Under the pieces are notes generated by a model. It ran no database searches, was not told the origin of the DNA, and worked only from the letters and a program-made list of their open reading frames with translations. From contig JBLDXI010000019.1 in the NCBI GenBank assembly GCA_047495785.1, positions 868,001 through 932,000 of the forward strand: 64,000 nt of DNA, in the 5' to 3' direction. Positions 3,001-45,526 of this stretch are shown here, piece by piece (position 1 is the stretch's first letter; the number at the start of each line of letters is the position of its first letter). Both the position numbers and the translations under genes were made by a program. Source of the DNA: Lepidodermella squamata (Eukaryota > Animalia > Gastrotricha).

Positions 3001-6000
3001 CTAGTTCCCGAGAATTTGTTGACATTATCGAATCGGGGAATGTTACTGCTGCACGTTAACAGACCAGGGCAAGCTGGCGGGGGAGTCCATTGCCCTTCAA
3101 TTGTGCAGTAGCTAGCTGTTGGTCCGAAAGCAGGTCCGTTGCTGCACTGGTAATTAGCGGTGAAGCCGTTGCCACTTCTCTGAGCAGCTGCTGCGGTAAT
3201 TACAGACGGGGTAGGGACATCAGCACAATCAGGGGCTAAATTTGAGAGAAATTATACAAATTAAATTTTTAAATAAATCTAAAAATTCACCCTAGATCAA
3301 AATATTTTTTAAATATTAAGAAATAAAAAAGTAAAAACTTTTAAGAAAATTTGAATAACAAATTCATCAGTTAAAAATTAAAAAAATTAAATTGAAAGAA
3401 AATTCAGGCTATTAATTTCGGGACAATTTTGCAAAAGGACGCGAATTTACAACCCAATCCATGAGCTAAGGTAGCTTCTCTTTTTCATCGAATTTTTTAA
3501 ATTTCCGAATTAATTTCAAGCTAAATTGAAACTGCAGCATAAATTATAAAAAGAATAGTTACTTGAAATCGAAGCTCTAAGCAACGGATTTCCTTGCGTT
3601 GAGACAACAGAACTCGAGACACTGACGACCCCACCGTTCCAGATTATATCCGTATGAGTGAGAGGCAACGCAAAAACTTGAACTGCATCCGCCGTAAGCG
3701 CTACCACACCTGTCGCCTCATCCGCTGATTCATAGTGAACACCGACGAAATCCCCAGGTAGGACCAAAATTCGAGCTACAGGTGGGACAATAAAGTCCTG
3801 TTCATCAGTTGATGATGCGTTGAACAGGTTCACGCCGACTAGGCGGAACGCAGCTGAACTGATTTGTCGCCAAACTGCGAGGTAAACCGGCATTTTCGTG
3901 GCAAAAGGCCTTAATCGCCAGCGCCATAGAAAACCGCCACCCTGACAGCCGGAAAAGGTGAGCCGCGGAAATAAATAGGCGTAAGATCGAACGGTTCGAA
4001 TGACAGAACTTGTTGATAAAATTCCGGCAGAACAAGACTCGCCAATTTGACATTTTATCGTATCAGGGGTCGTCCAATGACCTTCCGGTAGACAAGTTGT
4101 CGCGAAAGAGACATTTCTATTCACAGGTTCGAAACCGCCCCGGCATGTGTACGCAGCTGTTTGATTGACAACCCCGCTTAAAACCGTAGTTCTGGTGTTC
4201 GGAATTAAAGGAGGCGGGGTTGGGCAAGATGGAGTTGAAGTGGTTGCTTTCAGAGCCGGAACTGCGTACCAGGTTTTAAGATCCAGCGAAACCGATGGGT
4301 TGAAAAAATCGCCGGGGCCCCCGAGTTTGTAACCGAAAGCTGTTGTCGAGACATAAGCATTCCAAAGCTGATTTTCCGCATATTGCCCTCGATTTTGTTT
4401 TGTATTTGCCGTGATAATCGCCTCGTCAACTGCAAATTTTCAAAAAATTAAATGATAAGTTTCAACTCAGTAGAACTTACAGGGTGACATGTAGAAAAAG
4501 CCAAGGACATCTCGCTGTTGGAAAGCTATGAACTGCCCAGGTTGGAGAATTATCGAGTTCATGCCGACTGATTTCGGCGTAGCTTTCGTCAAATTCACCA
4601 GTAGATAGCTATCTGAGGCTAACGGTCGCCATACAGCCAGGAAAACCGACGCATTTCTACTTGGATCAGCGTAGGCCGCGAAATAGTCCCATTGGGTGAT
4701 GACCCCACTACAGCCGAACGGGTTGCTCGGGAAAATGTAGAAGCCAATAGGTAATACGCTGTAAGACTGGTCAGATCGCGGATTGCCGCCGAAAGATGCG
4801 CCACAGCTACTCGGCGGTAGAGCGTACGCACATTGCGGCGGGGCTGGAGACCAGTTATTGCCCGATTGGCAGGTAATGGTAGCGGATCCTGTGATTCTTG
4901 TACCCCGAACGCAGGTGTAGGTAACCGTAGCTCCTGATGGAAGCGATTGGTTGTAGTTCACAACATTAGCCTCAGCGAACTCCACAAATGGAACAGAGGG
5001 ACAAAACGGTGATCTGACTACACTCGCACTTATCGGGGTAGTAGGGTAACCCCTGATAAGCGGGCCGTTAAATTCAAGCGTTTTCGCCGGTAAAATCTGA
5101 CTGGATTTGTAACGAGCGATGTAGACGTCGTGCACGTTCAATTTGTTGTTTTTCGTCGTGTCATTTGTTACCGTTCCCATGGCGACGACTCGGGTGGCAA
5201 CTTGGTCGCTTTCGTAGAAAAATCCGATAAAATCACCGCGTTGAACGACAATTTGTTGCCTGGGATCGGTGAAGTTGTATATCCGAAAGCCGCGGCCGTC
5301 GTAAGGAACGATGAAATTAGCCCCGGCCAACTGGAATTGGTTGCTACGATTCGTTGGTCTCAGAACAGCGAGATAAAACGGTGCCTCGTCAACCCTAACG
5401 AAAGCTAAAACAACGACGAAAATTGAAAGAATAAGAAAAATTCTCAAAATTACTAGTCCAAGATCTCAGCACTCCAGAGCAAGGGAAGGTCCAATTTGGG
5501 TAGAAAACAGCGAATGAGCCGCCTTCTTGAAGTTGGTAAGAACGGTCAACGTTTTGAACCCCAGCCGAGCATGACGCGATCGGATCTGTCGTGGTCGAAG
5601 ATGTTGAAGTCGACGTGATTGCAACATTCGGCAGGCTTGTCGTAGTTTGACCCGGTGAAGTTGTAGTAGCTTGAGTTGTCGTAGTATCAACCTGCCGACC
5701 CGGAGTGATTGCACCGCTAGTTGTAGTTGTCACAAAATAAGTCCAAGTTGTAGAATCAGTGATCGATCCAGGTGTTGGTGGGGTGGTCCGTCTTGTCCGG
5801 TCTGGCATGGGAGTTGTAACCGCATCACCAGCTACTAACATCAACGCCGGGTTTCGAAGTACGTAAGACTGAAATTCTCCGATAAATGAGTACATCTGGC
5901 CCGGTTTCACTGGAAAATTGACCATGCCATACAGCCCAATCACAGTTAGATATAACCGGTCCACAATGCCCAAATTGACCTCATCAGCCCCAGCGTAGGG

Positions 6001-9000
6001 AATTACGTACAGCTCGAAGGGTGTCTTGTAATCAGAATAATGAACTCCAAGGCAGTCGGTAGGTTGGACGTCGAATTGAAATGCGTCAGGAATGTCGTAA
6101 ATGACGATACCCGTGTTATTTGCCCAAATTTTGTGAGTCCCAATTAGCATCATAGTCGGGCCCATTTGCCGCCAAACACTCAGATAGACAGTATGAGGCG
6201 CGGTGAGGCTGTAAAAAACCCACTGCTTCGTTTTGCCCGAGCAACCGACGGTTAAATTCATGAAAATATGCATGAATGTCGAGTAGCTGTAGCCAGTATA
6301 ACGAGGGACGTTCGCGAAATCTGGCATGAAACTGCCGCAGGCAATCGCTCGGCCACAAGCCGGAGGTTCAGACCACCTCGCGTCAAGGCCACATTGAATT
6401 GAGGGGGACCCGTAAATCGTACCCGGGCACTGGTAATTCGCGAAAAGGCCGTTGTTACTGATCTGAGCCGCGCCAGCATTTCTCACGACTGGGGTGGGTG
6501 TTAACGAGCAATCAGGGGATGCAACACTGGCGGACATCAAAGGTCGACCCAAAATTATACTCGCGTTGATTACGACGAATGAATTCGCCCCAATCGTGAT
6601 ATCATTCCCATCAGCGTAGTACAGCCGATTTCCAGACCAGGTTATGTTGCTATGAGATACCGGCATCGTGTAAGCTATTGAAGCTTTGTCAACGACAAGG
6701 CCTACAACTGACGATTCTGTGGAGACGTAGGAGTAATGGAATCCGATAAAATCCCCAGTTCGTACGAGAATTCGTTGCTTCGGTGGGATAATAACAAATT
6801 GATCGCCAGGCGATTTCGGGGTGAACTGGTTCACGCCGACCAGCCTTGCCCCTTGCGTCTGGCCGGGTAACGGCCGCCAAACTGCCATGAAAATAGTCCG
6901 ATCGGCGTATTGCGGCTGGATGCGCCATCTCCACAGATAGCCACCACCATTACAAGTCGAGAATTTAATATCCGGAAATAAGTAAGTCCAAGTCGCTGTG
7001 TAGAGTACACCAGGGCCGGATGATAACGACCCGGCTGAGCAGGTTTCAGCGATCCGACATGTAACAGGCGATGGAGACGACCATTGGCCGTTTCCGAGGC
7101 AAGTCACGGTAATAGGGGTTGATGAATTCGAAAGCTCAAACCCTGCTCGGCAGCGGAATGTAACCACTTGCCCGGCAGCTGCCGTGGTCGAACCAGCTGG
7201 TACAGCGTTTTCGATAACAGGTAGCGGTCCTAAGCATGCAGGTTGGCCCAGGGTTGCTCTCAAAGCCGGAAAAGCCAGTTTCGGGTAATAAGTCAGTAAG
7301 TCAATTGGTAATGAATAAAAGCCAGGGCCATTTTCCATTTGGTAACCAAATAAATTTGTAGACACGGCTGCGTCCCAGAATACGGTCGGATTCTGAGCCA
7401 GATTAACCGAGACAATAGGATTGTCATCTAGAAGCAAAAAAAGCAGATAAAATTCATTTATTCTAAAATTTTAGTAGCTAACAGGGTGACATGTGATGAA
7501 ATCCCATAACATCGCCTCTCCTAAAAGGAATAAGCTCTCCAGGCCGCAAAATTACAGTATTCAAACCAAGTCGCTTAGGAACAGCCTTTGTGAAATTGAC
7601 CCAGAGATACCGGTCTCCATTTCGGCGCCAAATCGATAGGTAAACTGAAGCGTTTCCTGTCGTGTTGAAAAACGATGCGTGATAATCCCATCTTGTGATA
7701 ACTCCATCGCAATTGATCGGATTGTTGACGAATATGTAGACACCGTTCGGAACCGGGCGATAGACTCCGAATTGCCTTGGATCATCTCCCAAGGCTTGGC
7801 ATGATCCTAGTTGGTAGTTATAGCCGCAGACGGGCAGTGGCGAGGACCAACTACCGCTTGGTTGGCAGGTTAAAATCCCCGAAGTTCCGTCAACAAATGT
7901 CGACCCGTTCGTGCAGTTGTACCGAATTGAACTGCCGACAGTTACAGTGCCGCCTGACCTGAAACTCGCCACGGCTAGGTCGACCTCAGGAACTGAGACG
8001 CAAACAGGGCGCCTTTCGACCTGGCCGCTGATCGGGGACAATCGGTACCGCCGCAACACCCCGCCGAAGTCGAGAGTTTGTTCCTGATCTACCGGTATCA
8101 ACTCCCGTTTGCTATAACCTGCGATGAAAACGTCCGTTAAATCAGTTCCGGCGTAGAAAGGCGATTCGATGATTGGCCCGTGAAAACTGAGAGCCACCAC
8201 TTCGGTTGAAGTTTCACTGCTTTCGTAGAAGTAGCCGATAATGTCACCAGCGCGAACTGTGATTTGCTCCTCCGGTTTAACCGCGTAAGTTCGACGACCG
8301 ATGCCTTCATAAGGTACGATCATATTCGCGCCGACCAGGTAAAATTTTCCTGTATCTTCCGACCGTCTCCACACAGCCATGTAAAACGGAGCCTCGGCAG
8401 CTCGAACATACACTAAAAAATATTGAATAAATCTAAATTATTTTTAATTAATGAAAAATTACTCGTCCAAGACCGAACGATCCCAGAACAAGTTATGGTC
8501 ATGTTCGGAAATACTACTGCGATCGAGCCACCCTCAATTTGCGGGTAGTAGCTTTGAACGTCTACCCCGGGATTGCAGAACGGACTCTGAGGCGTCGTTG
8601 TGGTTGGGAATGTTTGCGTTGATGGGAAAGCAGACCATGGGGCGAGAGTGGTGTCAACCTGGCGCCCGGGTGTTGGAAATGGTGACCAGCTAGTCGAAGT
8701 CCGCGATGTTGACCATGGCGCCCAATTCGACCAGCTTGTCGACGTGGTAAAACCTGAACCACCCCATGAAGTAGTGACAGGAGCAGCAGTTGTAGTGATT
8801 GAATCATCGGCTGGAACTTCGATTATTCGAGTATCTTAAAGAAAAATGCATGGCTACGCTAGATCTTCATCAATATTGCGAGCAAATTACTTGAAACACA
8901 GCCATTATCGAATGTGGTTGTTATTTCGTCAATAGCAATGTTGCTGTAAGGGGTAAGAACGCTCGTAGCTTCGAAAACCAGGACGAAGGACTGAAAATAC

Positions 9001-17023: not shown

Positions 17024-20000
17024 ATGGCTTACAATATGCCGATGGCTGGTGGTTTCGCCTCTATGCTCAAGGAGGGCACTCAGGTTTGTAAATTATTCTT
17101 TAAAGCCACCTTGAAATTGACGAATATTGTTTTTCTCAGTCGTTCAAAGGAATGGACGAGGCGGTGTTCCGCAACATCGAGGCCTGTAAGGAGCTGGCTA
17201 AGAGCGTGCGCTCGTGCTTCGGCCCGAACGGTCGCAACAAGATGGTGATCAACCACCTCGAAAAGCTGTTCGTCACCAACGACGCTGCGACCATTGTCAA
17301 GGAAATCGAAGTGCAACACCCGGCGGCGAAAATCGCCGTCATGGCCAGCCACCAGCAGGAGGAGGAGTGCGGCGACGCGACCAATCTCGTTCTCATTCTC
17401 GTCGGCGCCCTGCTCGAACAGGCCGAAGAACTCCTGCGCATGGGTCTGTCCGTGGCTGAAATCACTTCCGGCTACGAGCGTGCCAGCAAGAAGGCGCTCG
17501 AAATCCTGCCAACGCTCAGCTGCGGTAAAATCGAAGATTTGCGCACCGAGCAGGAGGTGATCAAGGCCCTCTGCTCAGCCGTTGCCTCGAAGCAGTACGG
17601 CAATGAATTCACCCTGGCCAGGCTGATTGCTCAAGCGTGTATCTCCGTGTTGCCTGAGGATAAAATCCGTTTCAACGTCGATTCCGTCCGCGTGTGCAAG
17701 GTCCTCGGCTCGAGCCTGGCCCAGTCGCAAATCGTCAACGGCATGGTGTTCAAGCGCCTCGTTGAAAGCGACATCATTAAGGTGGAAGACGCGAAAGTCG
17801 CCGTTTTCGCCTGCGCCCTCGACGTCATGCAGACCGAGACGAAAGGCACCGTCCTGCTGCAGAACGCCCAGGAACTCATGTCGTTCAGCAAGGGCGAGGA
17901 GAACGTTGTCGAGAAGCAGATCAAGGCGATTGCCGATGCCGGCATTCGCGTCATTGTTACCGGTGGCAAGATCGGCGATCTTGCGCTTCACTTCTGCAAT
18001 CATCATCATCTGATGACCGTCCGCGTCATGTCCAAGTTCGACCTGCGCCGCATTGCCAAATTGGTGGGCGCCACCGCTCTTCAGCGTATGCAGGTCCCGA
18101 CCCCCGAAGAGACTGGCCACTGCAGCTCGATCTACCAGGTGAGCAAAATCTTCAAAAAATTGCTAATTATTTGCTAAATTTCCCATATTTTTCAGGACGA
18201 AATCGGTGAAAACCACGTTATTGTCTTCAAGCAAAACCAGAAGGACTCCAACGTTGCGACCATTGTCCTGCGCGGTGCCACCGAAAACTCGATGGACGAC
18301 ATGGAGCGTGCCGTCGATGATGGTGTCAACACGTACAAGACCCTGACTAAGGACAACCGCATCCTGGCCGGCGCCGGTGCTGTCGAGGTCGAACTCGCCC
18401 GTCAGTTGACGGAATTCGGCCGCAAGCAGCCTGGTCTTGACCAGTATGCTATTAAGAAGTTCGCCGAGGCTCTTGAGGATGTGCCGAAGACTCTGGCTGA
18501 TAACTGCGGCGTCAAGTCGATGGAACTCATGGCTGCTCTTCACGCTGCCCACCAGAAGGGCGAGAAGCACGCTGGCTTCGACATTGAGGTAACATTATTT
18601 TCCCTAGCATTTTTACCCGGCTGATTTTGGGCCAGGTTTAGTTTTGAAATTTAGGCGCTAGCACTAAATTTCGATAAAGTATTGAGATACCTTAGCAGCT
18701 TTCGCAGATTAAAATGCTCGAAACAGGCCTATATTTAGATGGATCGGACGAGTCGCGTTTAAAACACTCATTCACATGAAAAATGGCAACATTCCATGTG
18801 AATTTCATGTGAATGGAATGTGAATTTCCATGTGAATGGGATCTGGCCTTCGTTAAAACAGCGAGAGAAGATTATGGATAAGGAAAGGAAAGGACATGAG
18901 CTAGTTTATGAATGAGTATGGCCGGTAAATTATCAGGTCCACCCGAATCCTGCTCCTTTGATCTAGGCATGAAAGGTAATACAGAATCAGAGCATATTTT
19001 GATGAAAGTCGTTAATTTTAGAAAATTGCTATGCCGAAATATACGATTTAGAATTGTAGGAAAGAGAAATCGTGTTTTCAATATGTCCGCTTTTTCGAAT
19101 TATCGGAAAATGTCCCTTCATTCGATGCTTGTAGCTGCTTCAACAGCAAAGAAGCTAATGTACGGCCTAGGTACCCCTATACTCGTCCCGGCGTGCAGTG
19201 AACTCGCTGGAGCTCGCCAACTGACCTGGCTTGCAATTGCTTGCTAGCCTGGAACACGTACCCAGTTTTTGACATGTGCAAGTACAATGTGGCCAGGTAC
19301 ACCCGACTGTTACAGCGCGTCCAACCGTCATCGCCACTATGCACGCGCATCAGTCTGGCAGGATGCGGAGGCTCCTTGTTAACCCTCCGTGCTTCAGCGT
19401 ACACGGCAGTTGTGTCTTCAGGTCTCCAGTTTTACTAGATGGCTAAGTACGTAGTAAGTCACGTTGAGTAGAGTGTTCACGAAGTTAGTAGCCCTAAACC
19501 CACTGAACATGCCCTGTATGACTCGAATCTGTCGTCATTTGAGTATAGCCCGTACTAGTTCATACAGGCTTCCAACGTCCAAGTCACTGCCTCGAGCCAG
19601 TCTGATGAGCCACATCTTTTCTGGACGGCAACAATTTTCAGAGCATGGAAGATAGAGCGTTGCGCCTCCGACAAGTGCTATAATCGGCGTAGTCGAGCAT
19701 CAAAGACCCATCTGGGCAGTGCTCAGCCCCTATCCAGGATGAGCACCTAGGGTTAGAAATTCGTTGATAATATCAGGAGTGGAATTGTTCAGCAAATCGG
19801 GACTGTCATTTTCGAGCTCCAAAGTAACGCAGTCGAGAGTGTCGGATCGCTTATTCTTCGGTTGATGGTCACTCTTAACAGCCTCTGTGCTGCGGCGTCT
19901 AGTAGCGCCGGTTTCCGTCAGTTCGATACCTGTCTTAGTGGGCTCGTTTGGGCTCGCGCGATCGGACGTTACGCCAGCATTGGACACAATCTGCGGCGAC

Positions 20001-21120
20001 GGCGTATATTTCATGTCTCCTCGAAATACGATAACTTGGATTTAGCAATTTTTGCGACTGGCAAATTCATCGACTCCAATTCATTCTTCCTGAGTTGATG
20101 CTTCCCCGTACTTGATCTTCTAATTCGCGAGTGCTCTTCTTTGAGGATGGAAATATGCTCAGTTCTTCGTGCAGACCGGATAATATCTAACTTTTGAAGT
20201 TCGAAATCCAGCAACAATCAAAACAATCAAGAATCACAAAAAGAAAGTTACAATTTTGATAGCAACAAGAGAACATGAATAGGTGATTCAGATGCCTTTT
20301 CGGGCATTTCGCTCAGCGATTTCTACTCGAACCGTCTCTGACAGGCGGTCAAGATCGGCTCACTTTTCGGCCCTCTGTCTCACGGTCAGCTCGGTGATGG
20401 CTTTTTGTATCTCCTTCCCCTCATTCAATCATGAAATCGATACCTACGATAAAGAGCCCAAGGCTAAACCTAGGATGCCATTAATCTAAACAAGGTCGCC
20501 TAAGCCGTCGAAGCTTCAAAGTCCGTGAATAAATCCATAATAGATGTGCGCGTTTATTCTTCCGACGTTTCGGTCATTTTCTATGACTATCTTTAGGGAA
20601 AATTAGTTGAGAAATTAGATCAAATTTGGAGATATTTTTTAAGGTGGATGTGAATAAATATTTAAGCGTGAAAAAGTTAGGTCTCAATTAATTTAATGAA
20701 TATACGATTATCCTTCTAACGAAACCTAAAATCAAATGAAAAAGAAAACACTCCAAAAATGAAAAAAAATATTTTCTTTTCTGATATTCAAAAATATATG
20801 AAAAATGAGTGGATAAAGGAGCGATATTTTTGAGGTGGACGTTTTTCAAGTGTGTCGTTGTTTTAATTAGGCTGGCACTGCCGTGACCAAGGACGCCGTT
20901 GCGTCTGGCATTTACGATCTTTATCTGACCAAGCACTGGGCGATCAAGTTCGCCACCCACGCCGCGAACACGATCCTGTGCGTCGACCAGGTACGTTGTT
21001 GTCACCGGGTGACCCTTTTGACCACGTGTTAACCTGCGCCCTGATTTCTAGATTATCATGGCGAAACCGGCCGGCGGCCCGAAGCCGCGCGATGGCAAGG
21101 GCTGGGACAACGACGACTAG
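17024..21120 (+). CDS. CCT8: T-complex protein 1 subunit theta; exons 17024-17083, 17140-18138, 18196-18588, 20871-20990, 21052-21120
   Basis: GPNGRNKMVINHLEKLFVTNDAATI, TETKGTVLL, SKFDLRR, ERAVDDGVNTYK and C-terminus VDQIIMAKPAGGPKPR...WDNDD*. All junctions are GT-AG and in frame. Confidence 0.97.
18835..19110 (-). mobile_element. Decayed non-LTR retrotransposon (CR1/L2/Jockey-type) ORF2 fragment
   Basis: With one frameshift it reads SGGPDNLPAILIHKLAHVLSFP/LSIIFSRCFNEGQIP, the pre-RT S.GPD.IP..L...A..L..PL..IF......G..P motif of LINE ORF2. Confidence 0.75.
19115..19750 (-). pseudogene. Endogenous viral element: RdRp fragment of a toti-like (Ghabrivirales) dsRNA virus
   Basis: Motif A MLDYADY/(Q)H at 19700-19680. 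Motif B RVIQGMFSGFRATNFVNTLLNVTYY at ~19525-19450. Motif C RVHSGDDGW with GDD at 19335-19327. Motif D GYVFQASKQ and motif E GELQRV...GYLGRTLASL follow. Order and spacing are correct; several frameshifts and stops. Confidence 0.88.
19750..20602 (-). mobile_element. 5' fragment of a Penelope-like element (hammerhead-bearing pLTR plus decayed ORF N-terminus)
   Basis: Hammerhead-like motif and AATAAA at 20553-20602, followed by decayed coding (GKEIQKAITELTVRQRAEK*ADLD...; DLLNNSTPDIINEFLTLG) resembling PLE ORF N-terminal regions. No RT or GIY-YIG sequence is visible. Confidence 0.55.
20557..20602 (-). ncRNA. Degenerate minimal type-I hammerhead ribozyme
   Basis: TTTTCC-CTAAAGA-T-AGTCAT-AGAAA-ATGACC-GAAA-CGTC-GGAAGA: helix I TTTTCC/GGAAGA, stem II GTCAT/ATGAC, GAAA box and GUC site. 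The CUGANGA box carries a G-to-A change. Confidence 0.65.
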
Positions 21121-24600: not shown

Positions 24601-27600
24601 ATTATACACTATTATTAATAACATCAATACGGTCATGCTGTTGTTGTTTATCGAGTTACAGCAGCGGCTTTTGATGAACTAACCAACTAACGTGTTTTGT
24701 CGACGCGAGAGATAGCCTTAGAAACATGCCGAGCGTTAGTTGTAACTATCCCAATATTTATGTTCCAGACGAAAACGAAGAGGTGCTATGCGATGCGCTA
24801 ACTCGATGGATTAATTGGCACCTGGAATCGGTAAAATAAATTACTCAATGAATTTGGCGAAATTATCGTGATTTTTTTCTAGCATAATTTATTACCCATC
24901 CCGGACTTGGTCGAAGGAGTGAAAGACGGCCGGGCTCTTCTGCAACTTGTCGAATGCTTGTCTGGTCAACCGCTAACGCCGGAACGCGGCCAAACGCGGA
25001 TACACTGTGTTGGCAATGTAAATAAACTGCTGGACTTTCTTCGCCTTCAATCTACGGTTTGCCTTGAAATTTGCCTTGAGATTTTTATTAATTTTTGTTC
25101 ATTTTTAGTTAAAATTATCCAACATCGTTCCGGAAGATATTATCGACGGAAACGTTAAAATTATATTATCCCTGGTGTGGAATATTGCTCTGTATTATCA
25201 GGTGAGTTATTTTAAGGTGGATTTTTTTAATTTTAATCCAATTTTTTTAGATCATTCGTGTTCTCGTTTTGGACGGCTATGTAAGCCGCGATTGTCAATT
25301 ATCAGCCTGTGAACAGGCGATATTATCATGGTGCCAGCAATGTACAGAGAATTATTCAACAGTCGATATTACAAATCTAACATCGTCGTGGCGCGACGGC
25401 CTAGCGCTGAACGCCGTTTTACACGCGCATTTATCGGCAACGTTCGACTTTAGCCGCGTTTTGCGCATGCAACCGGCCGAACGGGTTGCCAACGCGTTGG
25501 AACTCGCTAACCGGCATTTAGGCATTCGGCCGATTTTCGGCCCCGAGGCTATTGCTTCAACCTCGAATGCCGGTCTGGATAAGAAGACACTGCTGCTTTA
25601 CCTCAGCATGTTATTCGAACGGCTGCCCCGCCTGCCGTCAGCTGGCGGCCTCATCCACCGGTCTGACTCGCATAGCCCGACTGATATACAATCGTCGGGC
25701 TACGAGAAGCAGTCTATGACTTCGTCCATGACCGATAACGACGGCGGGGCGAGTGGCGGGTTAGGCTCGAGTATGGGCGGGCCGTCGATTTCGTTCGGCG
25801 AATCGATTGAAAGCATGTTATCGTGGCTCGCAGTCGCTGAGGGCCAACTCACCCTCGCCGAGTCGGAACCCCTGGGCGAGGGGACCCCCGCCCTGGTCGA
25901 ACAACTGGCCCAACACGAAGAACTCATGGGCGATATGGCGAAACAGCAAACCACAGTCGGACAGTTACTATTAGACGGGTCTTTACCCCCAACTTCCGAC
26001 TCGGACCAGCAACAGCACGAAGTCCAACAGCGCCAAGTTGCGTTATTAAGGCAGCGCTGGGAGGATTTAAGGACTCGAGTCATCGCGAGGTTAGGTGCTA
26101 TCCAAGACAGATTAAGAGTTGTCCGAAAATCTGATCTAGACCGAATTTCCCACGCGTTGCCTCAGTTGGAAAACGCGATTCGAGACCAACTCGACTCGGC
26201 GAATGGCCGCAATGTTTTAGCTGTTGTTAACTCGCTGGAAGGCCTTAATACCCATGTTAACCTTATTCACAACTTCGAGGCATCGGTTGAGGGTTATCTA
26301 AGGACAACCGAGGCTGTTCACGCGAATTTAATCGCTTGTGAAGAATCGGAGGAATTCGGCGAGGATGGGCCGCAATTACTGCAAAAAGCTGTGTCGTTCG
26401 GTGAACGACTCGCGAATTTGCAGCGGCAACTGGAGCAACAGCGTGATATCGTCGACCGGGCCCTTCGCGCCTGGCGGTTTTTCGCCGAGGAAGAGGGCTT
26501 ATTCAACGCGTGGTTGGCTGAAAAAGAGGCGATAATGGAACGAATGGTTGCAACGAAACTGTCCGGCTCGACTACAACCGGGTCTTCATCTGGGTCCGGG
26601 TCTCCGTCCCCGTTTGCTCAAACCGTGATCAGGCAGGTGCGACTGCTGAAATCTATCGAGTTGGAAATGGATAGCCAAGTTCGGCGGTTCGATTCGTTGA
26701 ATGACCATGCCCAGTTGGTGGTCAGTTCCCTAGGGGGTAACACGGCGGTTCTAGCCACCGTATCCGGGCAACTCGAAGCTATGCAACAACGGTGGGAAGC
26801 GCTAGTCCTGGCTATGGAGACTCACTCTCAGGTTTTAGCCGCGACTGGGGTGGATTTAAGCGAGGCCTTACTACCCTCACCCAGCGATAGCCAAGAAATG
26901 CAGAGATCAGTCGGGGGTGGAGGGTCGAGTGGGGGTAGCAGCACCCAGGGCGGTGCCGGGTTGGTGCCAAGTGGGTCCGGAAATCTGGCGAGTAGTGGCA
27001 ATGCCGCTTCCATCAGCCCGGCCAGTTCTTGCCTCAGCGAATTCGAATTCGCGGCTCGACAACTCATCGAATGGCTCGAACGGGCTGAGAGTGGGGTAGG
27101 GCTAATGGCGGTCGGTGACACCCGTCACCCAATGTCAACCGAGGAGCAGTTATCTCTTCTCGCCGAGATGCGGAATGAATTAGCAGGTCAAGTCAGCCAG
27201 TTAGACTCTGTTAAACAACTCGGAGGTCGGCTGGTTCAAGACCTGGAACAAGCCGGCGAGTCGGGGGGTGACGTGACCGAGGCTATCCGATCCCTAGAAA
27301 CCCGCCTCGAACGCCTCTCCCAAACCGCTAATGCCTCAGAACGGCGGTTATTAGTCGGAATTGATATCAGGGTGATTCAAGAGGAGGTCTCTTCGTTGAA
27401 TGAAGTTTTGGCTGGGTATGAAAAATTCCTGAAGTCGATCAGTAACGACCGGCCAACCGACCCGGGTATGACGTCATGCCTCATCGATCAATGCCGCGTT
27501 AAGCTAAAATTGATGTCATCCTATGGCGATCGCATCGAAAGCCTCGAACATCGATCTTCGGCCCTTCAAGCGCCGGAAGACTCGATGTTGGAAGAGGTGA

Positions 27601-30600
27601 ATCATCTTCACCAGGAGGTTGATCGATTCGTGGGGAATTGGAACGGAGTTAGGGCGCAAATCGATGAAAGACTGAAAATTTTAAAGACAATAGCCGCTCA
27701 ACGGCCGCCGAAATCAGTCGTGGAGTCGATTAATGCCCTATCTAAATGGCTCGCTGAGGTCGAAGGAGTGCTGCAAAGCGAGAGAATTGAGGCGAATGAG
27801 GTCAGCGCGCTGGAGGATCAGCATAACCAACTTCGCGAGTTGGGTAACGCTGTTCGAGAATACGAGGATTATTTAAGCCGGGTTGAAGCCGGGGTTCGAG
27901 CTAACGCGGCGTCTGCTGGTATCGGCTCGCAAGAACAGGCTAATCTACAAACCTCAGTCACTCGGCTAGTCGAGCAATACGCCACTGTTCGAGAAACTAT
28001 CGACGCTCATGGGACTCAGTTGCAGCGGCTGATCGCGGATTTGACTGAGTTACAGTCAAACTGCGATGGTTTGAACACCTGGTTAGACGAAATGAGGTCC
28101 TACATCACGGAAACTCGACCCTCAGTTGGCGATCTTGAAACTCTCCGCCAACAGGTTAACGAATGGAGTGACGCTGAGCGCGATGTTAGTACCCTCGAAC
28201 AGACTTTGTCGGTTATTCAAAGTTTAACTAATCGCCTACTGGCCAGTGCGAATAGCCCGGCTTTTGCTGATAAACTCGTCAAGCAATTATCGTCACTTCA
28301 ATCGCGATTTTCTGACACAGCGGGTGAAACTCGTGGCTTGGGCAGCCGCCTTAAAACTAGCCTAGCGACTGTTGAGCAGTTGTGGTCTGACTGCGAGCGT
28401 TTGACAAATTGGCTTGAACAGCGAATTGCCAGCCTTGAATCGGATAAAGTCAGCGAAACTGGTCTGCCGAGTGGTCCGATTTCGGATGAAGCCCAGCTGC
28501 AAGAACGGTTTCAACAGGCTCAGGAGGGTCGTCGGGAATTCGAAGAGCAGAGCTCGGAATACGCGTCGTTGCAGCAAACCTACGACCAGTTAGTGCCATC
28601 AGGCGCGTCGACCACTGACACGCCGTTAAACCGCCGTTTACAGAAATTAAACAACGTCTGGGACCAGTTAGGTGGCATGATTGCCGAGCGACTTGCAGTT
28701 CTACAACGGGCCCAAACTGAGGTCCATTCGGTTAAAGAGCTGGCTAAGCAGGAAGATGATTGGCTGAATGATGTCGAACATCGGCTGACGATTTGCCGCC
28801 GGCCGTTGACGGACGCTGAGGATATCAGTGAGCAGAGTTACGAGCTGGAAAATATCTGGCAGCGCGACTCAGCCGCTCATATTTCGACTGAATTACGGAC
28901 CGTTTCAGACCGGCTGATTTCAGCTGAAATTTGCGCGTCTCTTGTCTCGCAAGTTCGGGAGAAGGCGGATAAGCGGCGCGATGAGGTTAGCGAGAAGGTG
29001 ACTCAAGAACTCGCTAGACTCGAGGCGATGCTGCAGCAGAGCCAGGAAATTGAGCGAACCCTACTTGGGGTTATGCAGTGGCTATGCGATGCGGATGAGT
29101 TGCTGCAAAGCCGTCTCGAGGCCGATATTCTGGCCGCTGATGTCCCGCAAGAATTCGAGGCGTTGCAAAATGAGTTCGGCGAGCACGAGCGAGTTGTTAA
29201 CCGGCTCGAATCGATCAAAGACGGGCTGTCGAGCGAAGGCCGTGAGCTAGCGGCTGCTCGTCTCAAGCAGCAAATGGATTTGATAAGGGAGCGATTCGCG
29301 GCTGTTAACCACAAATTCGCCAAGTTTCAAAGACCGGCTGATTTCGAGACGAAACTCGACCGGGTTCGGCGTGTTCTCGACGATGTTGAGGAGCGGTTGA
29401 ATTTACTTGAGATTCGCGAGGCTGATGTCGATACGTTGAGCTCGCAACTCGACCACTGTTTACGCTTCTATCGAACCCTAAGTGAGGCGAAACCTGAGGT
29501 TGAGTACGTGCTAAGAACTGGCCGGCAGGTTGTTGAGAAGCGCCAAGTCGACTACCCCGAGAAGCTATCAGCCACGCTAGACACGATAAAGCACCGATTC
29601 AACCAGCAGGGTAGCCAAGTGACGCAGTCGAAAGGCCTGTTGGAGCGGGCGGTGAAATTGTCGAAAAAGTTGACGAAAGACGCGAATGTTTTGAAAGATT
29701 TGTACGCGAAAGTGGACGCGGCTGTTGCTGACGTCCAGCAGAACCAGGACGACGCCCCGGCTGGTCAACCGGCCATGTCCGTTGACGACGGTTTGCGGCT
29801 GCTCGAAGTTCTCGACGGCCAGTTACGGCGGCGGCAGCAAACGTTGCGATCTGCTGAGGACTGTATGGCTCAACTCACTGATCTAGCGAGTGTTTGTTGC
29901 TCAGGGGGCGAGTTGGCGCAGGGTGCGATGAAGGACTGGTTAACGCTACGCTATGGCGCGTTGCCTGTTCGCATGGAGCGCGCGAATAGCGAGTTGAATG
30001 ATGCTATCAGCCGTTTACGTGAGCAGCAACAGCGCATTCAATCGATACAGGCCGATATTCAAACCGCCATGGAGTCGATAGGTTCGGCGTTGTTTCGAGC
30101 CGAGGCGCAACTGCGACGCTGGACGACCACCGGGGAATTGACGGCGGCGGATCGCCAGAAGCTACAGGTTTGTGTTTATTATTAAGGTGGTTGTTGATAC
30201 TATTTTTCGCGCTTCATTTGCCCCTCTCATCAGTGTATAACCAAGTTTCGCGATATATTTAACTGTAAATAGCATGCCATTACCCGGGCCTATAATCGAT
30301 CGCAAACACGCGATATGCATATATACACTTATATTATAATTCAATTCGACCGCAGTGATAACGATAGTCTATGTGAAGAGAGGTGGCGCCGCTGCTCAAG
30401 GGGAAGGGGAAAAAATAGCCGATGGTAGTAGGGAGGCTGCTCTGTCTTTCCATTGCCTTGTAAATATAATCCGCCTGCGTATAACTGGACACGTAGTTTT
30501 TATCTTGATTATATTTTCTTGCATTATTTATTATGAAAAAAAGCTCGCGAATAATGCTAATTTTTCTCGTTATTACATTGTAATCACGCTATTGTGAAAA

Positions 30601-33600
30601 ATTATTGTCGGTTTTTCTTCCTCATCTGCGAACAATAGACGTTGCAAGGCGAACTCGAAACAACTGTTGCTGGTACTCTGTTCTCAAGTGTTCGCTCGCT
30701 GGCGTCCCAACTCGGCGACATCGAGCCGCGGCTGCGCTCTGTTGTCGACGCGCAAATTGCCGACTTTTCGACAAAACTCGGCGACGTGCAAACTCGAATT
30801 CAGGTGAGACATTTAACATTTTTTATTAGTCTATTTTTGGGGGAATTATTGAAAAATTGCTACCATTCAGATTTGCTGGTTCTATTTTCGTTGATAGGTG
30901 CAATATAATATTGTTTATGGCATTTTTATGGCATTTTTACGGTAATCGTAGACTTGCCTGAGAATATTTTATCGCACTCTTTCGAGCTCATAAAAATGGT
31001 ACATATTTTATTTCCGGGATAAGTACCTCGTCCGAAAATTTGGCAGTAATTGATTTTCTCCTGCTGAGATCGAAATTGCGATCTCTAGATTCGAGCTTTA
31101 ATTATTAAATATTTTTCTATATTATTGCATTCATTTTTTAGATGGCTCTAGCCCAATCGGAAGCAAACGAGTTGGAAAAAAGTTCTATTAAGGAGGCTGT
31201 TTCTACCTCCGCCGATGATGTTATCCTCGCCCTTCAGTCATGCCTCGAAAAAGTTCAATCACTGCATCAGCCCGATCTCACGACAACACTGTCATCCGAA
31301 GCCGCTGATCAACTAGTCCAGGCGTATACAAGCGAATTCGAGGCAACTGACGAGGCTGTTCGAGCGTGTATAGCTCGAATCGGAGTTTGGCTCGAGGAAA
31401 CCGCGGAAGGCGAAGAGGCGGAACGAGTCGCTGGAATGCTGGACGATCTCAAAAAGCAGGCGCAAACCCTGGTCGATCATCACGCCTCAGTCACCCGGCT
31501 GAGTCGCGGTGTTTGCGATTTGCGAGAAATGGAACTACTTCGAGATCAACTATCCGAACGACTGGCTCGAGTTTTCGACGCGGCCGACGGAATTTCAGGC
31601 ACATTGGCCGGGGTCACCCAGGAAGACCTGGACGTTGTTCAAACCGAGGCTGGAGATTTGCAGACTATCCTAAACAGGGTAGCCGCCTCGGGTTTCCAAC
31701 CAGACTCCAGCGCTGTTCGGTTATTAAGGCGGTGCGATGATTTATTGTCACTGAGTACCTCAGGCCTGTTGCTTCAATCCCAGCAGTCTGTCACGAATTC
31801 GACGATTGGAGTCGGGAAGGATGACGCAATGTTCTTATCCGCCCTTTCAGTTCAAACTAACTCGAGATCTATTGTCTTCGACACGCCCCATGGCGGTAGT
31901 ACTGATCTAGTCGGGGAGGAAGGTACCCTCTCGTTATCAATGGCTAACGAAGTCTCGGCCTTCAACACAACGGTCGAAGATGTCAGTCACCGAATTTTGA
32001 CAATTCAGCGCAGTTTGGCGAAGGCTGATCACGTCGCCACTGTCGTACTACTCGAGAACGAATTCGTTAACACGTGTAACAGCCAGCTGCAAACAGTCGA
32101 GGCGCAATGCAGTGAAGTTGTCGAAAATTGCCTGCAAACTGGCGAGGCTAATCACTTGGAAACTGGCGAGAAGCTCAAGTCCTCCGTCGATCTGTTACGC
32201 CTGCAGACGTCTCGGTTAAGGCGGTCGTTTGACGAGCGGCGGACGGATATTCAGCGCGTCGACTCGCTGGAGGACCGCTTTGAGGCGGCTCTTCGCGACA
32301 TGGACGCGATTTTGTCGCGCCGCCAGAAGTCGCCGAAGCCGCAGTTGTTCGCCAACTCGCCGTCGCTGTTCGGCCTCGCGTTGTACGGTCTTGAGGCCGA
32401 GCTTTCGGCCTGTTTAGGCGAGTGCAATCTTTCGGAGTCTTCAGAAGACTCGCCGCTCGCCTCAAGAGCGTCGCAACTGCGAGCGAAAATCGCGGCTAAT
32501 CTCGACCGGCTGAAGTCGACGATCGCTGATACGCCGAAATCGCTCGACAAGGCTGACATTGTCAAATGCCTGCATGAAGGCGAGGAGTTCGGCGACAATG
32601 AGTGGTACCAAAGCGCGGGTGTTGTGCTGAAATGGGCCCAGTTATCGCCGATTGCGAATGACGAAATTCAACAAATCCACGATATCTCGATCGCGTTAGC
32701 CGACGAACGCGCTGCCTTTGCGAAACAGGTCGATGCCTGGGTCGATCGCATTCTGCCTGAAGTTCTCGAGGGCGGTGTTGTTGATATCAGCTCAATTCTC
32801 GCTGAAATTGAGCGGAAAAAGCGGCGGTTATCCATCGTCGAAGACCCGGCTAAGGCGGAGGAGTTGCGGCAAAAACTGAGCAAATTACGCCAGGCTGTTG
32901 TCACATCGGCCGGGCAAGACCTATGCCGCTGGTTGGGCGTGATTCGCGAGCTGGTCACCGCCGGCCGGGTTCGGATCGGCGACTCGGATCAGGTCGAATC
33001 TGAGATGGATAAGCTCACGAAACTTGGCGCGGATTTCGAGGAGAAGCAGGGTGTTCTGAAGCAGATCATCGACGACGCAACCAACGACGAAATTGCCATT
33101 CAAAGTGAGTGGTAGCCTTAATTATTAATGACTATATAAATTAGCCTGGGGGTGGTGTGGTTGATGGGGCGGGGACAAAACCCACCAGAAAAAGGCCTAC
33201 TCAATGCACTTGAGGCGTGAAGTTTTTCGGTTCTTGATTATTGTTTTTTCTGCCGTGCTTTATTACGAGCAATATGACTAGCTTTGAGCGGAAATTCTGG
33301 CAATTTCGCACCTAGCCTTCGTTTCCGTACTTTGTTTCCGGGCGGCCCGCCGTCCGATTTGACGCCGCTGTATTAAATACCGCGACAAAATGCGATTTTT
33401 CCCTCGCATTCTGGCGACCAATAGTTGCGACCTTTTTGAAATGTGGACATTATATCAGATTTCAGTGTATAGCCGTTCCGCTTCCCATAAAACCATTTCG
33501 CTCGCTACGCGGGGGTGAAAATTAGCCGATTTATTGAGCTGGATTATACATTTTAATGCATAGCGTGAAATACTATTAGAGAAGCTTGATTTTCGGGCCA

Positions 33601-36600
33601 ATTAATTTATCGTTTCTTGGTTTCTGAGTAAACATATCATGTGACGCTTTTCCACCGCATATAATGGTCTCATCTACTTTGTTTGACCGCATCGCGCTCG
33701 TTATTTCGATTATTGGCGCCCATCGCTACAAATAATTGCCCTTCCTCCTTGAATAAGTTGCGCGCGCGTGATCGCCTAATCCAATATGACCAGTGGACTT
33801 TATTAAAGGGACCAAAATCTGCTCGATGTACTACTATCTTTTCAACGCCTCAAATCCGCCATTGTCTCGGCTTATTATGATGATTGTTTTTGTTGTACTA
33901 TATTGGCCCATAATTTATATATTATTATTATAAAATGCCACAAGAGACCACTGCACCAAAACGCCTTTTGTCTCCTCTATTTCGCGCCATCGCGTCTTAC
34001 AGCAAAAAATGTGTCAAGAATAATAACCCGCAAATCGCGTCCTAAGAAGCAATTTATAAGGAACTTGTCAGTTTTTCGTCTTCCCCTGTCAATTTTCGCT
34101 TTTTTCTAATGTTATTTATTATCATATTTTTTTATCGCCGTAAGAAAATCAGCCAATGTATAGAATCCCCCGGGTACCATATATTTTGCGCGTATTTTTT
34201 CTACATTTTCGATTTGCTACTGCGGACGTGTGCGAGTCCTGTATATACATGGTCTAATTCACCGTCTGAGGAGATGAAGCAGTAGGGGCAAAAAAATTCT
34301 CGCGAGAATTGGAATTGTTTTATACATTGTCGTTGCATGCCACCACACCCAGTCCAATCATTTGCGCCGGACTGCTCTATTATTTTGCGACGAAATAATC
34401 GCGCGCCACATCCTTGTAGCAGTAGTCAAGTTGTTGAAAATCAAAATCGAAAATGCGCGGAATTATGGCCAGAGCGACAGACACATCTCGGCCGCTCGAG
34501 GCCGTGTCCGCGCGTGTATTTATAGATTACGAGCGCGATGTAGTAATTATTATTGATATAGACATGCACTACTAATGCTACATTTTTAGCCACTCCCAGC
34601 CAGCTTAATAACTTGCGCGCGAAACATGAACTGAGGCGAGATATTTGTAATTACAAAGCGTTCGATCTTTTTTTATTGCATTTAATTAATATATGTAGAT
34701 GGAACTTTGTTTTCAAACAAATAATGTCGTGCTATCACAGTAGAATAGCATGAAACCGGCCTCGGCCAGAAATCATCGTCATCATCGTCATCATTATAGG
34801 CACCCTCCGCCGCCGAGTAGTAGAAGCTGTTTTCATAACTTTTTAATGCAAATATAAAATAATTTTTGTACTGGAAATGTCTTTTCTTCGAGGGTTCGGT
34901 ATGCCGAATCTAAGTAACTGAATAATTTTCCGCAAATAACCTATAAATTGATTAATCGTTTTTTCAGTGAATGACCTCAAAAAACAGTGGGACTCTGCTG
35001 TAGTGGCTGTTGAGGAGCGGAAAACTCAATTGGCCGGAATTTTATCGATCGGTACCGAAATCAACGACCAGGCGGAAAAATTGGATGGCCTAACGGGTCG
35101 ATTACTCGAGTCTACGCAGGAAGCGAAGAGCAAAACGTTAGAAGCTGCTGGGCTCATGACGCCGCCGTCTTCGACAAAGCCGGCCGAATCCGTGGCGCCA
35201 TCAACGCCGTCTTCGGTGCGGCCGAGCCAGGGCGAGTCTGCCTCAACGTTATCAGCCGCGATTTCAACCCCGTCGATGCCATCGCCGTCGTTATCGTCCC
35301 ATGCCGGTTCTCAGGCTGCTGCGTCGGAGATTGAAGCTTCGAAAGATTCGGTGCAAACTGCTGCTAATTTAGCGGATAAGCTGACTGAAAAAGGCAATGA
35401 AGCTGAGGCGTTGGCAAAAACAACTGGTGATGACTCATCGATGGTCCGAGACCGCATCGACAAATCGATCAGAAAATTCAGTACTCTCGTTAACCGACGG
35501 TAAGTCGAATTTTATGGTGAAATTTTATTAAAAAAAATACAAATTAGTTTTAAATTAAAATTTTGAAATATAATTCAATTTTCGAATTTTTTTAAATATT
35601 TTTTACGTCCGTTTTTAGGGCAACAATTATTTTTTCCTGTAAATTCTCAATTTATTTAATCAATTTTTTGTTTCTCTGAATTTTTTTGTAATTTTTTCAA
35701 TTATTTCTTAGCCGGTCAGAATAGGGTACTATTTTTTGTATTTAGCCTCAGGCGGCACGCGTTTAATTTGCCCGACCACTACTACAAGATCCAGTGACTG
35801 TTGACATTTTTTGTCGATCAAAAATGATAGTAGTGGAAAAACGTCTTAACTAAATCAGTTGCACTTGACCACGCTACTAGTGCTGGGCACTAGATCTAAT
35901 CGACGCGCGTTAAGATAATTACATTTTTAAAGAGCAGCCTGGACATGCTGCTATTAAGTATAAAGTAATAATAGCGTTTTATAGGGTGGTCTAATATATG
36001 TTTGTCCAGCTTTTATTTCTGGCCACCAAATATGCCGTATGTTTACTCTGAAGAGTTGTGGCTTTCCTTGCGAGCCTACAACAATTTATCCGCCTTAAGA
36101 TGTTGTTTTGATGCTATATATGGTCCTTTTTCTTTGTTGTAGCTTCTCTTTTATCTGGCTGCTGTGTATCAGATATATTTTTTACGTTTTAAGCTGTTTA
36201 CTATTATTGGCGTAAATAACTGCTACTACCTTGCTTTAAAAAATAATGCGATCGAGTTACTCAATCGATTCGGCGAGTGAAATCGATGATTTTGAGGACA
36301 TAGAAGAAGATGACCTAACCGATATTGACGATTACGGTTATGATGACAGGTTGAGTCTCGCGTCGATCGCCTCGTCGGCCGGCAAAAAAACGCTCGACGA
36401 ACAGCTGAAGGACACGTCCGACTGGCTGTCCGCCGCCGAATCGCGCCTTACCACCGTAAACCGCACGTTCGACGCGCAACTCAGCGCCATTTCACCGTCT
36501 GCCATCGTTCCTGTCGAAGAACTCGGCCAACAACTCTCGGTAAGATTGTAATAAATTGTTTTATCATTATTATGACACAGCGAATAAAAGCCAGACGCGC

Positions 36601-42600: not shown

Positions 42601-43454
42601 AAAATGAAAGCGCGCGCCTTCAGGCCGAATATTCCCGCCTTCTGGTTAGTTTTTTTCAATCTCGATAATGCGTTTTTTTAACCCCGAAATTGCACCAAAA
42701 TCCCGTTTATTTATCTGAGACATTTTTTCTGCACTTGAAAAATGGTTTTCGAAATTTATAAATTAAGCGAATATTCAGCTTTGAATCAAGCAACGTTATC
42801 ATGTTGCCATTGTGGGCAAAGATATTACCCGGCTTATACTCGCCCTAAGCGGTACCAAGTTCGATTTAAGGAGGATTTTTTGGTAGCAAATTTTAATGAA
42901 TTTTTTTGTATATTTATGCGATTTTTTTCCCACAGACACAACAACGTCAAGTTGCCAACGGCACGCTAGGTCGAATTGGCGCCAGCCAGGAGGTGTTGGG
43001 CGAGGGTAAGGACGCGGCTGATGGGCCTCAGAAACCAGCCACCGAGGCTGATATGGCGAGCGAGGCGCGGTTATTGCGTCACCACCGCGACCGCCTCGAA
43101 CTTCGCCTCAGGATATTGGAGGAGCACAACGGCCAACTCGAGAATCAACTGGCTCGACTGCGGTTGTTGCTTGCCGATCACAACAACCGAAACCCGGCGA
43201 CTAACCAGCAACAGCAGCAGCAACAACAGCCGCAAATTCCGGCCTTTGACGGGAACCAGGGCGTAGCTCGGCCGCTTGGTGCCTCGCAATCGGCGCTGAG
43301 TGGCTCCGGAGCCCCGCCGGCCTATCGGCGGACAGGCGCGGCGGCGAATATGTCCGAGCTGCTGCAAATGGCCGATAGTATTGGCCAGGCTGTAGGCACC
43401 CTGGTGACCGTTTTAACGGATTCGGAAAGCGAAACGCCCGGAACGACTGCTTGA
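21684..43454 (+). CDS. DMD: Dystrophin/utrophin ortholog (~3845 aa if the 16-bp duplication is removed); exons 21684-21702 (or 23318-23375), 24769-24830, 24883-25056, 25109-25201, 25251-30167, 30639-30803, 31142-33104, 34968-35499, 36350-36539, 37728-37858, 38363-39605, 40185-40949, 41864-42644, 42936-43454
   Basis: CH1/CH2 ([42 protein letters not shown]), spectrin repeats, WW ([24 protein letters not shown]), EF-hands ([37 protein letters not shown]), ZZ (CAICK...[20 protein letters not shown]) and C-terminal coiled coils ([22 protein letters not shown]). Confidence 0.95.
40337..40368 (+). repeat. Perfect 16-bp tandem duplication (ACAGCAAATGGAAAAG x2) inside a dystrophin exon
   Basis: Copies at 40337-40352 and 40353-40368. 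The upstream frame stops at 40379 while the conserved ZZ region continues in another frame. Confidence 0.95.
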
Positions 43455-45356: not shown

Positions 45357-45526
45357 CCGAATTTTAGTTACTATTGAAATAAAATGCAATTATTTAGGAT
45401 TGCCTCAAATTTCCATTTGAATTTAATATGAACGTGTTTCGTGAAAGGATTGGTACATACTTCTGCATAAGTTTATGGGAAGACAGACATTTCAAGTTCT
45501 TGATGATCCCCCAGAAATAATTTAGG

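Follow-up and report, generated by a model that had tools for sequence, protein, structure and literature searches.

Features of the locus

The window, by which we mean the whole 64-kb stretch of DNA analysed, contains a gene identified as CCT8 by its named homologues. Named relatives share at most 67% identity with it, and the top ones are from gastropods and a nemertean. Its intron 3 is 2282 nucleotides long, versus 56, 57 and 61 nucleotides for the other three CCT8 introns, and holds a toti-like RdRp fragment, a LINE fragment and the probable 5′ body of a Penelope-like element (PLE) next to a degenerate hammerhead motif (Table 1). The RdRp, LINE and PLE-like pieces all read on the minus strand. 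Spliced contigs from three of the four runs examined (X2, X3 and X5) skip exactly 2282 nucleotides, from GT to AG. Both the enlargement of the intron relative to its 56–61-nucleotide neighbors and the common orientation of the pieces had been proposed in a preliminary description of the sequence, and both are borne out here. A close orthologous intron was not found, the top match being 64% identical among the 80 metagenome loci retained out of 106.

Table 1. Features in and next to CCT8 intron 3 (positions within the window)
Feature	Position	Strand	Basis or remark
CCT8 exon 3	18196..18588	+	
CCT8 (TCP-1 theta) intron 3	18589..20870	+	2282 nt; spliced joints in runs X2, X3, X5
LINE ORF2 fragment, linker before RT through first RT motif	18670..19126	-	Scores vs LINE ORFs L096 and L093; X1 copy
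Local 11/23-nt tandem duplication within LINE piece	18755..18838	.	TRF
Toti-like RdRp fragment, motifs A, B, C, E	19127..19700	-	Pfam RdRP_4; relatives; frameshift-aware alignment
Probable 5′ body of Penelope-like element, decayed ORF start	19750..20557	-	Hammerhead; X1 repeats; depth bins
Degenerate type-I minimal hammerhead	20558..20602	-	Descriptor search; several X1 contigs match 20549-20603
AT-rich stretch, 26% GC	20603..20841	.	Within half-depth bubble

The assembled intron is matched over its whole length, with no differences, by a 2309-nucleotide contig of run X1, which may be the source sample. The zone between the RdRp and PLE pieces is bridged, again with no differences, by an 88-nucleotide contig of X2, a separate study. 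In what is likely a DNA run, the intron has a depth of 49, versus 92–105 for the exons. This half depth, together with three sources that have no kinship, might point to an assembly in which host DNA was fused to reads of viral or repeat origin, but the two contigs, one of them independent, and an RdRp with frameshifts impossible in a replicating virus make such an artefact vanishingly improbable. The half depth rather suggests that the insert is probably confined to one of two haplotypes. A second intron allele was not found in the contigs of the runs; these contig sets drop records, and its absence proves nothing.

The viral, LINE and Penelope-like pieces

The RdRp piece matches the Pfam family RdRP_4 (E = 3.5e-6, 26.7 bits against a cut-off of 22), and the same family was found in all seven scanned members of a set of 130 relatives. 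Among the 20 relatives looked up, six are named viruses, four of them with “toti” in the name, and two are proteins from arthropod genomes. The top viral relative shares 44% amino-acid identity with the piece, which amounts to approximately 190 codons of a protein of approximately 1000 amino acids. The frameshift-aware alignment places frameshifts near 19678, 19526 and 19399 and stops near 19555 and 19177, that is, at least three frameshifts and two stops in total. A fragment at 19750-19115 had been described earlier; its identity holds, but homology is firm only over 19700-19129. The piece is embedded in host DNA, as a single contig links both exon flanks and other runs show splicing of the intron. 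With its RdRP_4 homology, it is a toti-like non-retroviral endogenous viral element (EVE). In a tree of 44 rows, which contains 43 of the best 57 matches and omits 14 without motifs A to C, its terminal branch is 2.45 long, versus a median of 0.46, and with this long branch the tree gave no resolved placement. Viral contigs yielded just two short, chance-like matches to the piece. In word-index protein searches, none of 22 candidates scored for the RdRp piece and none of 9 for the LINE piece, PDB searches with pieces of the window and one RdRp relative gave no relevant match, and a search of a phage collection gave no match.

The LINE piece scores 130 against a LINE ORF (L096), versus a shuffle maximum of 62, and 118 against a second one (L093), versus 51. 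It is cut on its 5′ side at 19126, carries the motif of the RT start at 18760-18719, and lacks the 3′ part and tail. Beyond approximately 18670 there is weak LINE similarity, perhaps to 18615, so that the LINE identity previously assigned to 19110-18835 is upheld while its lower end has to be moved. A related copy in X1 is 85–88% alike and carries 36 different letters at the site of the tandem duplication. Pfam gave no RT match on the piece, which is too decayed, and the LINE motif had no matches in viral contigs. An Atlas search with the piece led to a cluster named after a retrotransposon, at 0.92 and low recognition, which we treat as a lead only.

The hammerhead motif has a 6-bp helix I, an A at core position 5, and a 5-bp helix II with an A at 10.1; helix III is replaced by a palindromic CG, and an AATAAA lies next to it at 20558-20553. 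These features were checked against PMC4209133 and File S2 of PMC8557442. With a descriptor composed after the motif had been seen, 20602-20558 is the sole match in the window, and 3 of 1000 intron shuffles reach one. An Rfam search over 18500-21000 gave two chance-level matches and no match to a hammerhead model, and six matches to the hammerhead pattern in viral contigs are all without PLE similarity. From 20595 upward the sequence is matched by one X1 contig whose end resembles another hammerhead. The AT-rich stretch above the motif contains a weak internal repeat (64 of 2000 shuffles) and could be either upstream pLTR sequence or old intron.

The PLE-side segment is repetitive in X1, where the patches 19936-20007 and 20024-20092 match other contigs at 85–94%. 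Depth bins bound its lower edge between 19730 and 19790; 19700-19750 falls outside firm RdRp homology, and a weak alignment (E = 0.62) links 19810-19739 to a LINE motif. The protein of the segment had no match by Pfam, Atlas or PDB. Pfam found neither a PLE RT nor a GIY-YIG endonuclease in three minus frames, as the piece ends before these domains. The protein motifs presumably resemble the start of a Penelope ORF. Taken with the ribozyme, these motifs suggest that 19750..20557 is probably Penelope-derived. Thus, of the hammerhead/PLE-like segment first described, the hammerhead and the repetitiveness in X1 were recovered, and the Penelope protein was matched by none of the tools.

Joints and origin of the insert

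The RdRp and LINE pieces are separated by 0–2 nucleotides on the same strand. Of 129 alignments, 49 lose RdRp homology at 19129 and most of the rest extend no more than a few codons below it, and two LINE-family X1 contigs match up to 19126, beyond which they translate like the upstream LINE motif. The joint of the PLE and RdRp pieces can be placed only to within approximately 50 nucleotides, so that the abutment earlier suggested for all pieces is confirmed at one joint and located loosely at the other. No target-site duplication (TSD) was found around the insert or around any piece, the longest exact flank repeat being 7 nucleotides, equal to that in shuffles. A 14-nucleotide repeat with two mismatches (18638 and 20603) might be the trace of an old TSD of the insert, the outer edges of which are placed only approximately, although 26 of 200 shuffles contain a repeat as long. 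No 3′ pLTR or tail was found, and each piece is without a 3′ end.

A flush joint on one strand fits capture by reverse transcription with a jump from RNA to RNA. Of the template-switch capture postulated in the preliminary description, this joint and the lack of a TSD of its own for any piece are in favor, whereas the hallmarks of an ordinary LINE or PLE insertion (tail, TSD and 3′ pLTR) are missing. We give about even weight to the reading that all three pieces came in at once, as cDNA that patched a chromosome break, and are now a neutral relic on one haplotype. A short intron would have been broken, and the reverse transcriptase of a LINE, started from a priming site within the LINE RNA and moving towards the 5′ end, would have switched at 19126 to a toti-like viral plus strand, of which it copied approximately 600 nucleotides, followed by a jump to Penelope RNA or a joining to Penelope cDNA. 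Repair would then have sealed the patch without a TSD. Splicing and the allele could have survived because the patch is antisense to CCT8, and all parts would have decayed since. The source of the reverse transcriptase, the single event and the neutrality are steps that we infer; neutrality is suggested by the frameshifts and stops, the long terminal branch, the changed ribozyme core and the half depth. Double template jumps by LINE reverse transcriptases have been described (PMC2104539), and doubly truncated, multi-fragment inserts without TSDs are described as products of RT-product break repair and endonuclease-independent L1 insertion (PMC4516963).

The most specific form of this reading, which we put forward tentatively, is a single event that ran from LINE RNA to the plus strand of a dsRNA virus to Penelope RNA and sealed a break in an intron of approximately 58 nucleotides. 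It would be a three-template retro-chimera made without an LTR element, in an animal lineage without a close named relative, with the empty allele surviving. Some observations count against a single event. Three pieces share a strand with one chance in four, and purging of sense insertions from introns would raise this chance. Later deletions yield identical flush joints. The PLE piece keeps an uncut ribozyme and perhaps upstream sequence, both of which self-cleaved PLE RNA would lack.

Deletions are central to the main rival, a stepwise origin, in which a LINE (or a LINE-virus chimera) and a Penelope element entered separately, one of the two received the viral cDNA, and loss of the 3′ parts later made the joints flush. 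This is possible but somewhat doubtful. The 3′ ends are missing from every piece, as deletions would leave them, the LINE piece underwent a later local duplication, and nested PLE-in-LINE insertions without TSDs are reported from Adineta (PMC3846280). However, a tiny target on a single haplotype would have to have been struck by three rare events and to have undergone two or more deletions, the inner joints show no TSD for any piece (longest exact match 7 nucleotides), and the viral piece is flanked by two different elements. It is unlikely that the 2-kb block was built elsewhere, for instance in a cluster rich in TEs and EVEs, and copied in, whether in the form of DNA or of a single read-through transcript. 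Mosquito piRNA clusters are described as typically holding EVE and TE fragments on the same strand (10.1101/127498), but X1 has no second contig over 19156-19729 at 80% likeness or more, in contig sets that drop records, and its depth there is a constant 49.0. Even less probable is that the viral and LINE RNAs were captured in trans by Penelope machinery, in the way that PLEs take up host sequence lying between pLTRs. The hammerhead/pLTR at the 5′ end, the unrelated sequence that PLEs are reported to have captured elsewhere (PMC3846280) and a 10-nucleotide inverted match to the hammerhead start at 18597-18606 would accord with it, but a direct 3′ pLTR and a TSD are both absent and the inverted pair is at chance level (233 of 300 shuffles).

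Known systems and candidate function

The locus shares features with several systems as far as their published accounts describe them. As in the bipartite and tripartite chimeric retrogenes made by LINE template switching (PMC2104539), different RNAs are joined directly in one orientation with a 5′-truncated LINE on the 3′ side; unlike in these, no TSD was found here, there is no LINE 3′ end or tail, and the 5′ parts are internal fragments, one of them viral, rather than cellular RNAs copied over their full length. RT-product break repair and endonuclease-independent L1 insertion (PMC4516963) likewise give truncation at both ends and several fragments per site without tail or TSD, although they are described in mammalian cells and do not demand the same-strand order. 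The hammerhead resembles that of Penelope pLTRs (PMC4209133; PMC3846280) in its type-I minimal motif, the bulged base before helix II and the palindromic 15.2-16.2, and differs in that G5 and G10.1 are A, that it is single-copy, and that RT, endonuclease and a second pLTR are lacking. As in the ToEVEs reported from arthropods (PMC10636211), a decayed toti-like RdRp fragment lies in a host genome and is apparently polymorphic, but here it is intronic, between a LINE and a probable PLE, in a host whose CCT8 is at most 67% identical to named relatives. The LTR-associated EVEs described in Aedes piRNA clusters (10.1101/127498, PMC5497376) also have an EVE and a retroelement in a shared orientation, opposite to that of the transcript, whereas the partners here are a non-LTR element and a PLE, and the setting is a 2-kb intron rather than a cluster of more than 50 kb.

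The candidate function proposed at the outset, a small-RNA trap in which CCT8 transcription yields antisense piRNAs or siRNAs against the virus and two elements, is compatible with any origin, and we regard it as quite improbable. CCT8 pre-mRNA is antisense to all three pieces; in partial parallel, 24–29-nucleotide RNAs are reported from most planthopper toti-like EVEs (PMC10636211) and piRNA-like reads from a suspected mollusc EVE (PMC6085071). On the other hand, the insert is heavily decayed and probably on a single haplotype, its closest LINE copy and viral relative are as distant as given above, and three runs show the intron removed by splicing. In X2, the sole independent RNA-like run, intron cover is approximately 0.4% of exon cover and climbs with GC (rho = 0.57), the pattern of background pre-mRNA or DNA; X2 intron contigs have strand-switch joints and an adapter end that look like library artefacts, and these were excluded from use. 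It is most improbable that the retro-chimera also yields antisense small RNAs and so became a candidate intronic immune cassette in one step. The locus is so far one decayed copy without sign of function, and the block is likely a decaying relic, not an immune device.

The germline entry of RNA viruses without their own reverse transcriptase has been argued mostly from mosquito LTR neighbors. Here a viral piece lies flush against a LINE, a Penelope element is the probable further partner, and an empty allele probably survives, so that the route could be read directly from the donor sequences and the other haplotype. The locus is, in addition, a dated trace of infection by a toti-like virus that has not been sampled, in an animal with little sampling of its own. 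In the protein of a relative (P0136, 80%), for which no intron length is given, the non-matching residues begin at the same position, and this break in sequence similarity hints at the same intron site in that relative.

Host intron and allele state of the insert

All of the best 120 of 4304 exon 2 homologs are T-complex protein 1 subunit theta, which identifies the host gene as CCT8; among these 120, two relatives reach 84% and 80% identity, named animals stay at or below 67%, and gastropods and a nemertean head the named-animal matches. By this search the host is an animal with no near relative among the named ones, and it may be a spiralian. In three sequencing runs (X2, X3 and X5), spliced contigs lack intron 3 at a length of exactly 2282 nt, bearing out the preliminary description, which had set its length against those of the other CCT8 introns (56, 57 and 61 nt).

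X1 is likely a DNA run and may be the source sample itself. One of its contigs, of depth 49, spans 18563-20871 without a single difference and shares 30 nt on each side with neighbors of depth 105 and 96. Half depth and 30-nt overlaps form the pattern of an assembly bubble with two alternative paths, and thus the insert (Penelope-like, toti-like RdRp and LINE pieces) is probably carried by only one member of a pair of haplotypes or homeologs, depth not being a copy number. The bubble's other path was not seen among the X1 contigs; at intron 2, X1 has two paths, of depth 48.6 and 59.5. Since X1 depth stays constant at 49.0 across 19156-19729, no second RdRp copy of at least 80% identity lies among the X1 contigs over this stretch.

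Joining 18589-18617 to 20842-20870 yields 58 nt, similar to the other CCT8 introns, and the empty allele is predicted to have an intron of this length. The haplotypes show 15 differences in exon 2, 14 of them synonymous, and 12 substitutions and four gaps around the 57-nt intron 2 in X1; so many differences leave time for one-sided decay of the insert. X2, from a different study, carries both letters at many of the X1 haplotype-difference sites, a hint that heterozygosity at CCT8 is shared or fixed. X2 also contains intron pieces that match without differences; their depth is roughly 0.4% of that of the exons and increases with GC, and the contigs carry no strand information.

Composition of the insert

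Pfam RdRP_4 recognizes one minus-strand frame of the RdRp piece (26.7 bits against a cut-off of 22; E 3.5e-6). Searching 1.84 billion representatives with 19120-19431 returned 130 proteins at E ≤0.001 (best 1.3e-10), none more than 44% identical, and RdRP_4 was present in all seven relatives scanned. Twenty relatives were looked up: six named viruses (Totiviridae sp., Mute swan feces associated toti-like virus 2, Sogatella furcifera toti-like virus 2, Murri virus, Hangzhou paraphaenocladius impensus totivirus 1 and Emileo virus), two proteins from arthropod genomes (sand fly and sea louse) and 12 unnamed or hypothetical proteins. The toti-like identity proposed earlier therefore stands, for a shorter extent than the 19750-19115 first assigned. 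A tree of the relatives did not place the piece, whose end branch (2.45 vs a median of 0.46) may owe part of its length to misread frame near the breaks.

To obtain LINE references, contigs of prokaryote genomes were scanned for a LINE motif; this gave 10 loci, six with the motif in frame. The LINE-type RT frames in these prokaryote bins (L089, L093 and L096) are probably eukaryotic contamination; RVT_1 in all three contigs tested and an APE-type endonuclease in two make them usable as references. Against four references the LINE piece scores 130, 118, 104 and 96, with shuffle maxima of 62, 51, 51 and 63 (20 shuffles each). Its LINE identity is thus upheld, but not its lower edge: 18835, formerly given as the end of a segment from 19110, is only where a local duplication within the piece starts. 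X1 has a related copy, 85-88% identical, without this duplication. Two further X1 contigs agree up to 19126 and diverge beyond, where their minus-strand letters, read by hand, look like the motif preceding this point in L093. With RdRp homology extending to 19129, the spacer is 0-2 nt, as little as had been claimed, and the two pieces are mutually in frame (one chance in three).

The hammerhead is the sole match to its motif in the window, and three of 1000 intron shuffles reproduce the motif, with a descriptor written after it was seen. Its core has A in place of G at positions 5 and 10.1; a G-to-A change at position 5 abolishes activity. Type-I minimal hammerheads of the same layout are described in metazoan PLEs (in part of PMC4209133), and core rows in PMC8557442 File S2, as far as excerpted, share it. 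Downstream patches are 85-94% like other X1 contigs. Since the protein has no match by Pfam, protein atlas or PDB search, the PLE assignment of this piece, previously placed at 20602-19750, is only probable; depth bins put the repeat's lower edge between 19730 and 19790. The second copy of a weak direct repeat extends exactly as far as the half-depth bubble.

Coordinates of features in the window
Feature	Coordinates	Strand	Remarks
Strongly diverged CCT8 haplotypes	17140-18216		
CCT8 intron 3	18589-20870		
Type-I minimal hammerhead	20602-20558	-	6-bp helix I, bulged base, 5-bp helix II, palindromic CG
RdRp alignment	19700-19129	-	74/173 columns identical (profile of 99 of the 130 relatives)
RdRp frameshifts	near 19678, 19526, 19399	-	same profile alignment
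RdRp stops	near 19555, 19177	-	same profile alignment
LINE match	~19122 to ~18670	-	weak on to 18615
LINE RT-start motif	18760-18719	-	
53-nt direct repeat	20599-20651, 20790-20842		64 of 2000 shuffles
Large repetitive multi-exon gene	126-8437	-	Sushi domains, Thr-rich linkers, repeated unannotated domains
Gene with 1644-aa open frame	25251-43454	+	
Tandem gene pair	44304-46798	+	apparently intron-poor
LTR-retrotransposon pol	56600-59797	+	stop-free, 1065 aa; RT, RNase H, integrase in Gypsy-like order

Origin and antisense orientation

A LINE chimera is defined by four features: its parts join directly on the same strand, it keeps the 3′ end of the LINE, its 5′ parts are full-length, and it has a TSD (excerpts of PMC2104539). 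Of these, the block shows only the direct joints. It matches the products of RT-product break repair and endonuclease-independent insertion, in which a site may contain several pieces, each truncated on both sides, with neither TSD nor tail (PMC4516963, in part). The preferred origin is a single RT-made patch, at about even odds. The preliminary description had named a TSD for each fragment as one sign of independent insertions; on the block's flanks only chance-level repeats were found. Separate stepwise insertions followed by deletion are a less probable course. Capture driven by a PLE, as outlined in part of PMC3846280, is opposed by the lack of a 3′ pLTR and TSD in the block. The Gypsy-like pol frame indicates that this genome also has an LTR source of RT, which could likewise have made the cDNA.

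The block is antisense to CCT8, as first described, and planthopper toti-like EVEs often yield piRNA-sized reads (PMC10636211, in part), both of which favor the proposal that CCT8 transcription yields antisense small RNA against a virus and two TEs. That role is nevertheless very improbable, as the block has decayed, is unlikely to be fixed, is removed with its intron by splicing and is distant from every known target. The block varies on known themes: toti-like EVEs are common (5686 across 593 arthropod species in the same excerpt), EVE-retroelement co-orientation is known chiefly with LTR elements (parts of 10.1101/127498 and PMC5497376), and viral helicases captured by LINEs are described (PMC6338049, in part). 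No report of a Penelope-virus-LINE block was found in a full-text literature search, most subscription papers being beyond its reach.

Other genes in the window

The gene with the 1644-aa frame is a putative dystrophin-like gene, judging by its spectrin-repeat, WW and ZZ-like motifs. The first gene of the tandem pair matches Glyco_transf_15 (alpha-1,2-mannosyltransferase; E 1.8e-24), a mainly fungal family, and is a candidate for horizontal transfer worth a check.
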